From a virus, in the UHGV virus genome UHGV-0393364: 16,419 nt of DNA; one strand, 5' to 3'. Position 1 is the stretch's first letter. Each line of letters opens with the position of its first letter. The position numbers and the translations under genes are program-made. Shown here one piece after another: positions 14,040 through 15,650 of this stretch. Under the pieces are notes generated by a model. The model saw nothing but the letters and a program-made list of their open reading frames with translations, searched no databases and was not told the origin of the DNA.

Positions 14040-14548
14040 TACGTCCGACCAGTACGCACACGATGGCGGGGGATACCATGAAACTGTTCTCTACACGAGA
14101 CAGAGTGGTGGTGATGTGTTGATTATCGGCGTATATGTGCACAGGACGCGCTATGACGATGTTTTATGCGGGTACACCAATCACATGTATCTGATGTGAT
14201 AAATCGTGTTACATGACATCTCATGTTGTGCTGGTGGTTATCACGACGTTCTGAATCTGGCCTTTGCCTGATATTTTGCGACAAGTACGCGCGCGTAGCA
14301 TAGAAATTATCGGATGGCGTATGCTGCTGGCAATATGAAGACCGATAGTATTAACCGAAAAGCGATTAAGGAGTGCCAACTTTTCAGTAGAGAAACTAGC
14401 CAGCATAGGAAAATGTAGAAATTACCCAATTAATAGGTAAAAGTTATTGACACAGCCTGTAGTGGATAACGATATGAATAAAAACCACATATAGTGGTTT
14501 TTCGTGAGTGATGATAGTATCTATGTTAGTTTCCTAAGTAACTGTGCA

Positions 14549-14576
14549 TTGACATGTGGATAACTTCGGATAGAGT
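14549..14576 (+). promoter_or_regulatory. Candidate sigma70 promoter for the Abi gene with an embedded consensus DnaA box
   Basis: TTGACA at 14549-14554, 16-bp spacer, TAGAGT at 14571-14576; the spacer begins with TGTGGATAA (14555-14563), the reverse complement of the DnaA box TTATCCACA. A second TTGACA (14447-14452) followed by AGTGGATAA (14461-14469) lies about 100 bp upstream. Confidence 0.4.
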
Positions 14577-14672
14577 TACAGGCAACCGAGCCCGATCCTC
14601 TGTTTCTCCGCCGCCGATTTCAGGCATGTGAGTTTCACGGTCGGGCCTTTTATTATCTTTTGTTTCGCCACT

Positions 14673-15650
14673 ATGATTGCCGCAAAGCCTCATAAGGACT
14701 ATCACGAATTGCTAGGATTGCTACTTGAACGTGGCATGATTATCAATGATCGAAATCGTGCGATACGTAAGCTGTCGCAGGTTGGATATTATCGATTGTC
14801 AGGTTTTTGGTACCCTTCAAGAATTATTGCGACAACAGATAAAGGTCTTTCGTACAGAACAGACCGATTTCTTGCTGGTACCAGTTTCGAGAAGACGTAC
14901 GATCTATATCTTTTTGACAAAAAACTGCGTCTTTTGATGATTGATGCTATCGAAAGAATAGAGATTCATGTTCGTTCAGTCATCGCGCATGAGGTTGGTC
15001 GCAATGATCCACTTGCCTACATGTCATCAAAATACATTAATCCAAAATTCTCATCTGCCTTCGAGCATTGGGTGTATAAGCAAAAAGTAAAATTAGACGA
15101 AAGCAGAGATGACTGTATTGAATGGCATCGAAGCCAAGGCAAGGAGATTCCATTTTGGGTGGCGGTGGAGACATGGGATTTTGGTCAGATGTCTAAATAT
15201 TATGCGATGCTTAATGGTCATATGCAGGGGAAAATTATACGTCGTTTTGGCATTGATAATAAGCAGACATTTGCAAAATGGTTGAAGTGCCTTAATCTCA
15301 TAAGGAATCGTTGCGCTCACCATTCCAGAATATGGAATAGAAAGCATCCCCGAGTTCCAGTACCGGATAATGAATACTTTGACGGACTTAATCTCCATCC
15401 AGAGAGTTGCGAGAGGATTTTTAGCGCGATCTGTATTATCTGGTACTTAGTTAAACGACTTGGTCCGGGATCAACATGGCTTCGGCAAATTGCAGACCTT
15501 ATTGACTCTAAACCAAATGTTCCCGGATGTGGATATGATTCAATGGGTTTACCTGCTAAAGGATTCCCACGAGAGAGATTCTCTCAGGACTTAGGTTTTG
15601 TTATCGCCGACAACGACCCTGTAGCTGAAGGGCGGAAAGGGAGCGATTGA
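14673..15650 (+). CDS. Abortive infection protein, Abi_2 family (AbiD/AbiF-like), 325 aa
   Basis: KPHKDYHELLGLLLERGMII...YYRLSGFWYP, FEKTYDLYLFDKKLRLLMIDAIERIEIHVRSVIAHEV, FWVAVETWDFGQMSKYY and LKCLNLIRNRCAHHSRIWNRK match the remembered Abi_2 family pattern, notably the IRN-x-CAHH-x-R-x-WN motif. Start set at ATG 14673 (MIAAKPHKDY...); the track's GTG 14628 start would add a hydrophobic 15-aa extension. Confidence 0.85.
   Translation: MIAAKPHKDYHELLGLLLERGMIINDRNRAIRKLSQVGYYRLSGFWYPSRIIATTDKGLSYRTDRFLAGTSFEKTYDLYLFDKKLRLLMIDAIERIEIHVRSVIAHEVGRNDPLAYMSSKYINPKFSSAFEHWVYKQKVKLDESRDDCIEWHRSQGKEIPFWVAVETWDFGQMSKYYAMLNGHMQGKIIRRFGIDNKQTFAKWLKCLNLIRNRCAHHSRIWNRKHPRVPVPDNEYFDGLNLHPESCERIFSAICIIWYLVKRLGPGSTWLRQIADLIDSKPNVPGCGYDSMGLPAKGFPRERFSQDLGFVIADNDPVAEGRKGSD

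Follow-up and report, generated by a model that had tools for sequence, protein, structure and literature searches.

Type III toxin-antitoxin (TA) systems of the ToxIN kind pair an RNase toxin with a cis-encoded RNA that neutralizes it, both being transcribed from a shared promoter and the toxin gene being set off from the RNA by a terminator. AbiF systems, of which examples were published in 2025, have recently been recast as modules with an RNA antitoxin and proposed as the ancestors of Cas13. PbAbiF of the Prevotellaceae, whose catalytic residues are given as R210 and H215 (PMC12373285), has been solved in complex with its own noncoding RNA, AbiFr (Protein Data Bank [PDB] code 8VZ6, chain A; PMC12373285 and PMC12737573). 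In the AbiFCd-RCd22 system of the Clostridioides difficile phi027/phiC2 prophage, an Abi_2 toxin gene on a mobile element is cotranscribed with a promoter-proximal RNA and a terminator-like hairpin, and RCd22 was shown to act both as an attenuator and as an antitoxin (PMC12373285). For the plasmid-borne lactococcal AbiD, AbiD1, and AbiF, phage resistance is established, and the native upstream sequence is needed for the gene to be tolerated (PMC13064643), which fits an RNA partner. The RNA accompanying the characterized AbiF systems is recorded in Rfam as the abiF motif (RF03085), and the reports on these systems describe such RNAs as neutralizing AbiF (PMC12373285, PMC12737573, and PMC13064643). 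Here we analyze a locus of this family in a stretch of viral DNA of 16,419 nucleotides (UHGV virus genome UHGV-0393364; hereafter, the window), for which a first-pass annotation made from the letters alone had proposed a single-gene abortive-infection (Abi) defense coupled to host replication through DnaA boxes. We find that the locus is an AbiF type III TA-like cassette with a variant leader RNA, to which we ascribe a putative antitoxin role; the identification of the Abi gene and of its promoter was right, and the DnaA coupling is unsupported. The explanation that we regard as probable is a two-component module of an AbiF (Abi_2/HEPN) toxin and its RNA, of the type III TA kind, forming a 1.3-kb cargo cassette within a hotspot of a satellite-like element integrated at thrW of Escherichia coli. 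Our confidence is higher for a structured RNA partner of AbiF than for the mechanistic details.

The protein is an AbiF-type HEPN family member

The open reading frame (ORF) at 14673 to 15650 matched the whole of the PF07751 (Abi_2) profile (E = 2e-52; 178.6 bits, with a cutoff of 25.6), the PADLOC AbiD model (E = 7.3e-58), and PHROG 2158 (abortive infection resistance protein), in agreement with its first-pass assignment to the AbiD/AbiF type. PDB chain 8VZ6_A, which we take to be the only solved relative, was recovered with E = 4e-36, residues 4 to 301 of the query being aligned with residues 8 to 292 of the chain; residue-by-residue identity is low, but the homology is nonetheless full-length. 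The hallmark string RN-x-CAHH-x-R-x-WN that had been read in the translation is present as IRNRCAHHSRIWN. In an alignment of 32 homologs (50 to 74% identity), R211, N212, A215, H216, and H217 are invariant, and the segment R211-N-R-C-A-H216 aligns with RNSCCH of PbAbiF, so that both proteins show the RNxxxH form of the R-x4-6-H motif that characterizes HEPN toxins. The N terminus, MIAAKPHK, is also kept among these homologs, supporting the start codon at 14673. On these alignments, the product is a genuine AbiF-type member of the HEPN abortive-infection family, with a predicted anti-phage RNase role. It belongs with the lactococcal proteins in the family defined by PADLOC AbiD and PF07751 but is distant from them in sequence (~27% identity in the Lactococcus phage matches) and from AbiFCd (~29% identity).

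A structured leader RNA lies directly upstream of the gene

To this gene belongs a second component, which the single-gene reading of the first pass had overlooked. We fetched 80 loci with AbiF homologs, one genome per species, and compared the 300 nt upstream of the gene. A MAFFT alignment of 55 distinct upstream copies gave a consensus structure of 16 pairs, with compensatory changes in 13 of them. In this structure-blind alignment, 93.2% of the cells are paired, versus 29 to 42% when the partners are slid by 1 to 3 columns; the covariation score is 0.579, versus at most 0.117 in the controls, and none of 500 shuffles reaches the observed values. The structure comprises a helix (P1) that closes an internal loop and a variable hairpin (P2). 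The loop has invariant C, C, C, U, and G on its 5' side and an invariant A and G on its 3' side (yCAyG), and the 12 nt after P1 are on average 62% U across the loci (the window reads CUUUUAUUAUCU). Within the close protein clade, the inner stem of P2 covaries through GCC/GGC, ACC/GGU, CUUC/GAAG, and AAC/GUU.

The R1 covariance model of this RNA has a single match in the window (51.4 bits; E = 2.9e-14). It matches 78 of the 80 homolog loci, every time on the gene strand and in 77 of them directly 5' of the gene; of the two loci missed, one has no upstream sequence. According to their records, the carriers belong to the Enterobacterales, Vibrionaceae, Pasteurellaceae, Pseudomonas, Burkholderiales, Desulfobacterota, Nitrospirota, and Cyanobacteriota, and R1 further matches two human-fecal phage contigs (28 to 29 bits) whose proteins are 30 to 35% identical. 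In the locus of "Candidatus Electronema halotolerans" (L044, positions 1 to 50), the match lies ~3 kb upstream of AbiF, which could reflect an insertion or a second, truncated locus.

Thus, the toxin gene is preceded directly on its 5' side, on the same strand, by a conserved structured RNA with its own promoter (see below), the arrangement by which AbiF type III TA systems are recognized. The logic that we propose is that of ToxIN, with two differences: ToxI consists of tandem repeats processed by the toxin, whereas the window RNA is single and nonrepeated, and the toxin has the HEPN rather than the ToxN fold.

RNA and toxin are exchanged as one unit in a variable hotspot

Elements related to that of the window but with other cargo are 98% identical to it up to 14304 or 14365, and the homology resumes at 15710; the interval from 14366 to 15709 is therefore a cargo cassette in a variable hotspot. 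The alternative cargo consists of ImmA/IrrE with a hypothetical gene, of HTH regulators, or of small hypothetical genes. The last ~10 codons (C-terminal; 15680 to 15709) of a conserved 146-aa minus-strand ORF fall inside the variable part. This ORF (15680 to 16120) was considered as a partner of AbiF and rejected, as it stays with other cargo and is unrelated to the ORF found 3' of the Edwardsiella homolog. The first-pass view of the Abi gene as satellite cargo stands in this respect, the cassette occupying a variable hotspot of a satellite-like element.

The same hotspot in different elements (L094, L095, and L096) holds a second E. coli AbiF allele (WP_000290520; ~51% identical), which comes with an RNA variant of its own. 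On the upstream side, these cassettes hardly differ from the window as far as 14580, four bases past the -10 hexamer; divergence between the alleles begins exactly at the predicted 5' end of the RNA (14580/14581), and high identity is back at 15710. A search with 14400 to 14585 showed the same break, its matches over query positions 1 to 181 ending at 14580. As identity ends at the start of the RNA and resumes at 15710, the RNA and the toxin (14581 to 15709) are exchanged as one unit.

Residence in a hotspot of a mobile element is also what would be expected if the module served mainly for addiction, that is, for stabilizing the integrated element, with defense secondary: upon loss of the element, the labile RNA would be lost and the toxin released. 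Type III TA logic permits such postsegregational killing, and the same possibility has been raised for prophage-borne AbiF (PMC12373285). The exchange of cargo at this site speaks for another role, since related elements do with ImmA/IrrE, HTH, or hypothetical genes in place of AbiF. Variable hotspots in mobile elements often hold defense genes. The lactococcal AbiD/AbiF proteins, moreover, confer phage resistance (PMC13064643). We therefore give addiction a low probability as the main role, noting that the two roles are not exclusive, and favor an AbiF-RNA module for which a function in phage defense is predicted.

Promoter, proposed mechanism, and the alternative of a purely cis-acting leader

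In a consensus scan of 13400 to 16419, the top promoter-like site (10/12) consists of TTGACA at 14549 to 14554 and TAGAGT at 14571 to 14576. In all eight close relatives, TTGACA and TAnAnT are invariant and the 16-nt spacing is constant, while the sequence of the spacer varies freely. More widely, a promoter of the form TTGAC(A/T/G), 16 to 18 nt, TAnnnT is found in ~71 of 77 distinct loci, where it ends 5 to 6 nt before the conserved CAA that forms the 5' end of the leader RNA; this conservation of hexamers and spacing in orthologous loci bears out the choice of this site as the best promoter in the first pass. A reading of the RNA hairpin as a plain terminator was rejected, and so was a second promoter at the TTGACA at 14447, where the -35-like hexamer is only partly conserved and no usable -10 follows. 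At the other end of the RNA, the ATG at 14673 comes 10 nt after the 3' end, and no Shine-Dalgarno sequence precedes it. In a second AbiF clade (L094, ~1040 to 1084; L104, L106, and L116), unlike that of the window, the RNA has the tail CCUUCUU and a GGAGG stands 8 to 10 nt later, before the ATG; judged by eye, the two could pair and hide the ribosome-binding site.

We propose that this strong, constitutive-looking sigma-70 promoter would start transcription at about 14582, so that the first ~80 nt would fold into the two-helix RNA with its internal loop (CCUCUG and yCAyG), followed by the U-rich tract. Most transcripts would end or be processed after the leader RNA, yielding an abundant small RNA, and read-through would yield an abiF mRNA that is poorly translated. 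The leader RNA would bind the AbiF dimer and occlude the HEPN RNase site; phage infection would upset the balance, free the RNase, and arrest cell growth. We infer these steps from the PbAbiF/AbiFr and C. difficile AbiFCd/RCd22 systems as these are presented in PMC12373285, PMC12737573, and PMC13064643.

Some of the same features could be produced by an RNA that acts solely in cis, as a terminator or translational leader that keeps abiF expression low, with no antitoxin role in trans. A G+C-rich P1 followed by a conserved U-rich tract and an ATG without a Shine-Dalgarno sequence are what such an attenuator would have, and a large share of the control in C. difficile comes from premature termination at the RNA (PMC12373285). 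Yet CCyCUG and the A and G of yCAyG are invariant across phyla, a constraint that would be required of a protein contact surface but not of a plain terminator; each toxin allele is exchanged together with its cognate RNA; and both AbiF RNAs that have been studied bind the protein and act in trans, as described in PMC12373285 and PMC12737573. We thus consider a purely cis-acting leader unlikely and prefer an RNA partner that would bind AbiF.

TABLE 1 Features of the AbiF cassette and its surroundings (coordinates of the window)
Feature	Position	Strand	Evidence or sequence
Conserved upstream block, ATTRATAGGTAAAAAC ... AACAACnACATATAGTGTTTTT, ~80 nt	14424-14504	+	nhmmer profile, alignments
One-mismatch DnaA-box-like 9-mer	14461-14469	-	AGTGGATAA on plus strand, TTATCCACT on minus strand
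Perfect 9-bp inverted repeat with 5-nt loop, AAAAACCAC / GTGGTTTTT	14480-14502		Repeat search
Sigma-70-type promoter of leader RNA and abiF (TTGACA, 16 nt, TAGAGT)	14549-14576	+	Scan (10/12), conservation
Perfect DnaA-box 9-mer in promoter spacer	14555-14563	-	TGTGGATAA on plus strand, TTATCCACA on minus strand
Structured leader RNA, AbiFr-like, ~80 nt	14581-14662	+	Covariation, covariance model R1
P1 helix, 8 pairs, G+C-rich	14590-14597 with 14639-14646	+	Consensus structure
CCUCUG, 5' internal-loop motif, invariant	14597-14602	+	Alignment
Variable P2 hairpin	Between CCUCUG and UCACG	+	Consensus structure
UCACG, 3' internal-loop motif, conserved	14635-14639	+	Alignment
U-rich tail of leader RNA	14647-14662	+	Sequence
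abiF/abiD-type gene (Abi_2/HEPN), 325 aa	14673-15650	+	PF07751, PADLOC AbiD, and 8VZ6_A matches
HEPN catalytic motif R211-N-R-C-A-H216 (Rx4H)	15303-15320	+	Invariance in homologs, PbAbiF alignment
AbiF cargo cassette in variable hotspot	14366-15709		Related elements with other cargo

Relationship to the Rfam abiF motif

RF03085 is a motif of 37 nt with a gathering score of 37 bits, and it performed as expected on positive controls, detecting the RNA in phiC2 (37.6 bits) and, immediately upstream of the gene, in the PbAbiF locus (58.5 bits) and a Prevotella relative (55.7 bits). Laid side by side, the two RNAs have a common layout: a P1 starting with CCCG, CCUCU, a central element, UCAA(A/G), the 3' strand of P1, and a U-rich tail reaching to the start codon. 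The 3-bp stem of RF03085 is replaced in the window RNA by a long variable hairpin. We therefore view this RNA as a variant of the AbiF-RNA kind that lies outside RF03085 and presumably shares descent with it.

Several observations weigh against our interpretation of the locus. RF03085 gave no match in 14380 to 14720 of the window or in two relatives (L089 and L003) at E of ≤10, nor, at its gathering threshold, in 20 related, mostly proteobacterial loci; R1 in turn scores 10 to 11 bits (E of ~0.1) on the PbAbiF loci, where its match falls precisely on the site of RF03085. As these scores are not significant, the kinship of the two RNA classes rests on the layout and the short motifs. Termination at the hairpin has the U-rich tail as its sole pointer, and our literature search returned no transcript, binding, toxicity, or phage resistance data for this cassette. 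Lastly, the class to which the window RNA belongs may already have been described by Zilberzwige-Tal et al. (Cell, 2025).

A search for an Rfam identity for the leader RNA found no family for the window or its relatives. A "lactis-plasmid" match at 14456 to 14545 (18.3 bits; E = 1.9) had no counterpart in L089 or L003, and we ascribe it to chance, as we do a CRISPR-DR48 match in L089 (E = 2.7).

Compared with PbAbiF-AbiFr, the locus has the same order, with a single structured RNA directly 5' of the gene on the same strand, its own promoter, and a U-rich end a few nucleotides before the ATG. It differs in the core of the RNA, which is about twice as long, with a variable P2 of 20 to 45 nt in place of the 3-bp stem and 11-nt loop of RF03085, and in its host, a member of the Pseudomonadota rather than the Bacteroidota. 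The order of promoter, RNA, terminator-like hairpin, and gene is likewise comparable, as far as the sequence tells, to that of AbiFCd-RCd22, and the dual role demonstrated for RCd22 is what we would predict for the window RNA. RCd22, however, has two copies of the 36- to 37-nt abiF motif (of which one, that in phiC2, was detected), whereas the window has one larger and different motif, and the AbiFCd gene lies in a lysis module rather than in a satellite hotspot.

We suggest tentatively, and with some doubt, that the leader RNA is a distinct, uncatalogued class of AbiF partner RNA. Pointing this way are its absence from Rfam 15 and the failure of RF03085 to see it, its occurrence in four phyla (Pseudomonadota, Desulfobacterota, Nitrospirota, and Cyanobacteriota) as well as in distant phage contigs, its invariant loop, a P2 whose hypervariable sequence follows the toxin allele, and the joint exchange of the RNA and its cognate toxin behind a promoter that stays the same. 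Such a class would offer a natural system for studying how a HEPN toxin recognizes its own RNA and, given the proposed descent of Cas13 from AbiF, may show a fixed antitoxin RNA gaining a variable segment. New in this work are the RNA variant and how widely it occurs, together with the evidence for its exchange as a unit with the toxin; a covariation-supported model of the partner RNA, with the promoter and boundaries of an E. coli cassette, makes the system experimentally tractable. There is also a gain for annotation, as the loci that we examined are now labeled as a lone "Abi family protein" with ~270 to 1,085 nt of unannotated sequence upstream.

The DnaA boxes in the promoter region

Both DnaA-box-like 9-mers reported in the first pass are present. 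The spacer of the core promoter contains the perfect consensus box, TTATCCACA, which spans about -28 to -20, and the one-mismatch copy, AGTGGATAA, sits nine bases after the second TTGACA (14447 to 14452). DnaA represses promoters whose core its box overlaps, such as those of dnaA and nrdAB. It could thus be argued that DnaA binds the spacer box, perhaps with the upstream box too, and couples the Abi module to the initiation of host replication: the 9-mer is of the high-affinity class and lies in a conserved promoter, the second copy is in the same orientation with GTGGATAAC repeated exactly, 94 bp apart, and both boxes are kept upstream of two different AbiF alleles in E. coli. The frequencies of such sites, their fate in orthologs, and the logic of the cassette make this explanation, in our judgment, very unlikely.

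As for frequency, the window contains a single match to the accepted functional consensus TTWTNCACA, where 1.79 would be expected, and 167 of 200 shuffles contain at least one; the first pass had itself cautioned that a 9-mer match can arise by chance. When the intergenic region of 266 nt is shuffled, 11.7% of the shuffles show an exact 9-mer direct repeat of some kind (P = 0.12). Sites within one mismatch of TTATCCACA number 10 in the window, against 3.67 expected, and none of 200 shuffles reaches 10. Only the site at 14555 fits TTWTNCACA; the eight that lie outside the promoter region, none of which fits it, are scattered in coding regions. Three of these near-box sites fall in the gp16-like gene (12667, 12702, and 12982), and three fall in the primase gene or a short way 5' of it (5153, 5788, and 6064).

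For conservation, we compared 79 homolog upstream regions, 8 close relatives, 16 viral-contig variants, and the second E. coli allele, and across these sets the DnaA box was ruled out as a conserved feature. A box with at most one mismatch is found in 3 of the 79 homolog regions, where ~5 are expected by chance, and the perfect box is absent from the orthologous promoters outside the near-identical E. coli copies: ~95 of them retain both hexamers and the spacing, and all of these lack the box, including those whose spacers can be aligned. At the position where the window has TGTGGATAA, the spacers of close relatives read TACGGTAAC, TGCCGGTAA, GCCAAACTT, TTTTTGCAT, TAGAAACTG, TCTTCTTTT, and TATTCCAGT, and viral-contig relatives whose spacers can be aligned clearly have TGTCGGTAA and TACTGATAT; both hexamers stay invariant while these spacers differ, and the perfect box is therefore separated from the non-boxes of sister promoters by two to four substitutions. 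The one-mismatch site lies in a semiconserved stretch in which relatives have AGGTGAGTA, AGTGGGTAA, AGGGTATAA, and AGTAGTAGT, among others: the letters GTAG...TAA are kept, and the TGTG/GATAA positions critical for DnaA vary. Polymorphism within E. coli was considered as a test of constraint and proved uninformative, since 123 of the 130 copies with the boxes are at least 99% identical.

Placement in the element's own replication origin was also rejected for the boxes, as both lie in swappable cargo that is absent from related elements. Moreover, the toxin and the putative antitoxin RNA share the promoter, and repression there would not simply tune Abi expression; the proposed coupling therefore lacks a simple logic. 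Set beside DnaA-repressed promoters, the window shares the overlap of a consensus box with the core promoter but differs in that this candidate box is not conserved in orthologs and forms no cluster beyond one weak copy. The perfect 9-mer may bind DnaA in the cell, with no sign of selection for it, and looks like a lineage-specific chance match produced by free drift in the promoter spacer. A tempting regulatory story is thereby removed as unsupported.

A conserved DNA block upstream of the enterobacterial cassettes

Upstream of the promoter, ATTRATAGGTAAAAAC, ~45 nt of weaker conservation, and AACAACnACATATAGTGTTTTT make up a block that includes the one-mismatch DnaA-like site. An nhmmer profile found the block upstream of the AbiF cassettes of two protein clades, in the Enterobacterales and Aeromonadaceae only. 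The inverted repeat in its 3' part is kept in relatives as sequence and only partly as pairing. RNAalifold gave zero pairs on the alignment, and we rejected an RNA structure for the block; by-eye inspection for sigma-70, sigma-28, integration host factor (IHF), and small-ORF readings found none that fitted. The block may be an insulating terminator or a protein-binding region, possibly one to which a regulator binds and which only the enterobacterial cassettes possess.

The satellite-like element and other contexts of the cassette

E. coli YP3 contains a stretch identical to the window. The window (1 to 16419; L001, 1705 to 21400) makes up most of a ~19-kb element integrated beside tRNA-Thr (thrW), next to proA. 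The genes run from an integrase through an HTH regulator, AntA/AntB, an ash-family gene, and a TOPRIM-DUF927 primase to four genes for P22-type ejection proteins (DUF2824/gp14-like, gp7, gp20-like, and gp16-like), and the right end holds a small minus-strand ORF, the Abi gene, the 146-aa minus-strand ORF, and perC. The annotation of the element lists no capsid, terminase, or tail genes, for which reason "satellite-like" seems a fair description. A satellite-like element with ejection proteins only seems unusual, and our literature search returned no description of this element. Relatives of the segment from 13400 to 16419 are present in ~650 of 5426 complete E. coli genomes, with full coverage in 74 records.

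A megablast search of the cassette against phage genomes gave no match. Close homologs of the cassette also occur in other mobile settings, namely, in a lambdoid prophage between dnaB and rusA/Q (L088), near perC and the antiterminator gene Q (L090), and beside another DUF927 primase (L091); the unannotated sequence upstream of the Abi gene in these loci measures 406, 617, and 1,085 nt, respectively.

Elsewhere in the window, tandem matches to Rfam isrK (63 bits) and to C4 antisense RNA (80 bits) are found at 2645 to 2833, within the ORF labeled "ash family protein" by RefSeq (2225 to 3292). This suggests a P1/Gifsy-type C4-antirepressor immunity circuit and possibly an overcalled ORF. Between the 146-aa ORF, whose N terminus looks ribbon-helix-helix-like by eye, and perC, the stretch from 16222 to 16345 has iteron-like repeats, with three copies of TGTTGGTTCA at 21-nt spacing and three inverted copies of TGAACCAAC at 9-nt spacing flanking an A+T-rich stretch; these could form an operator array or an origin.

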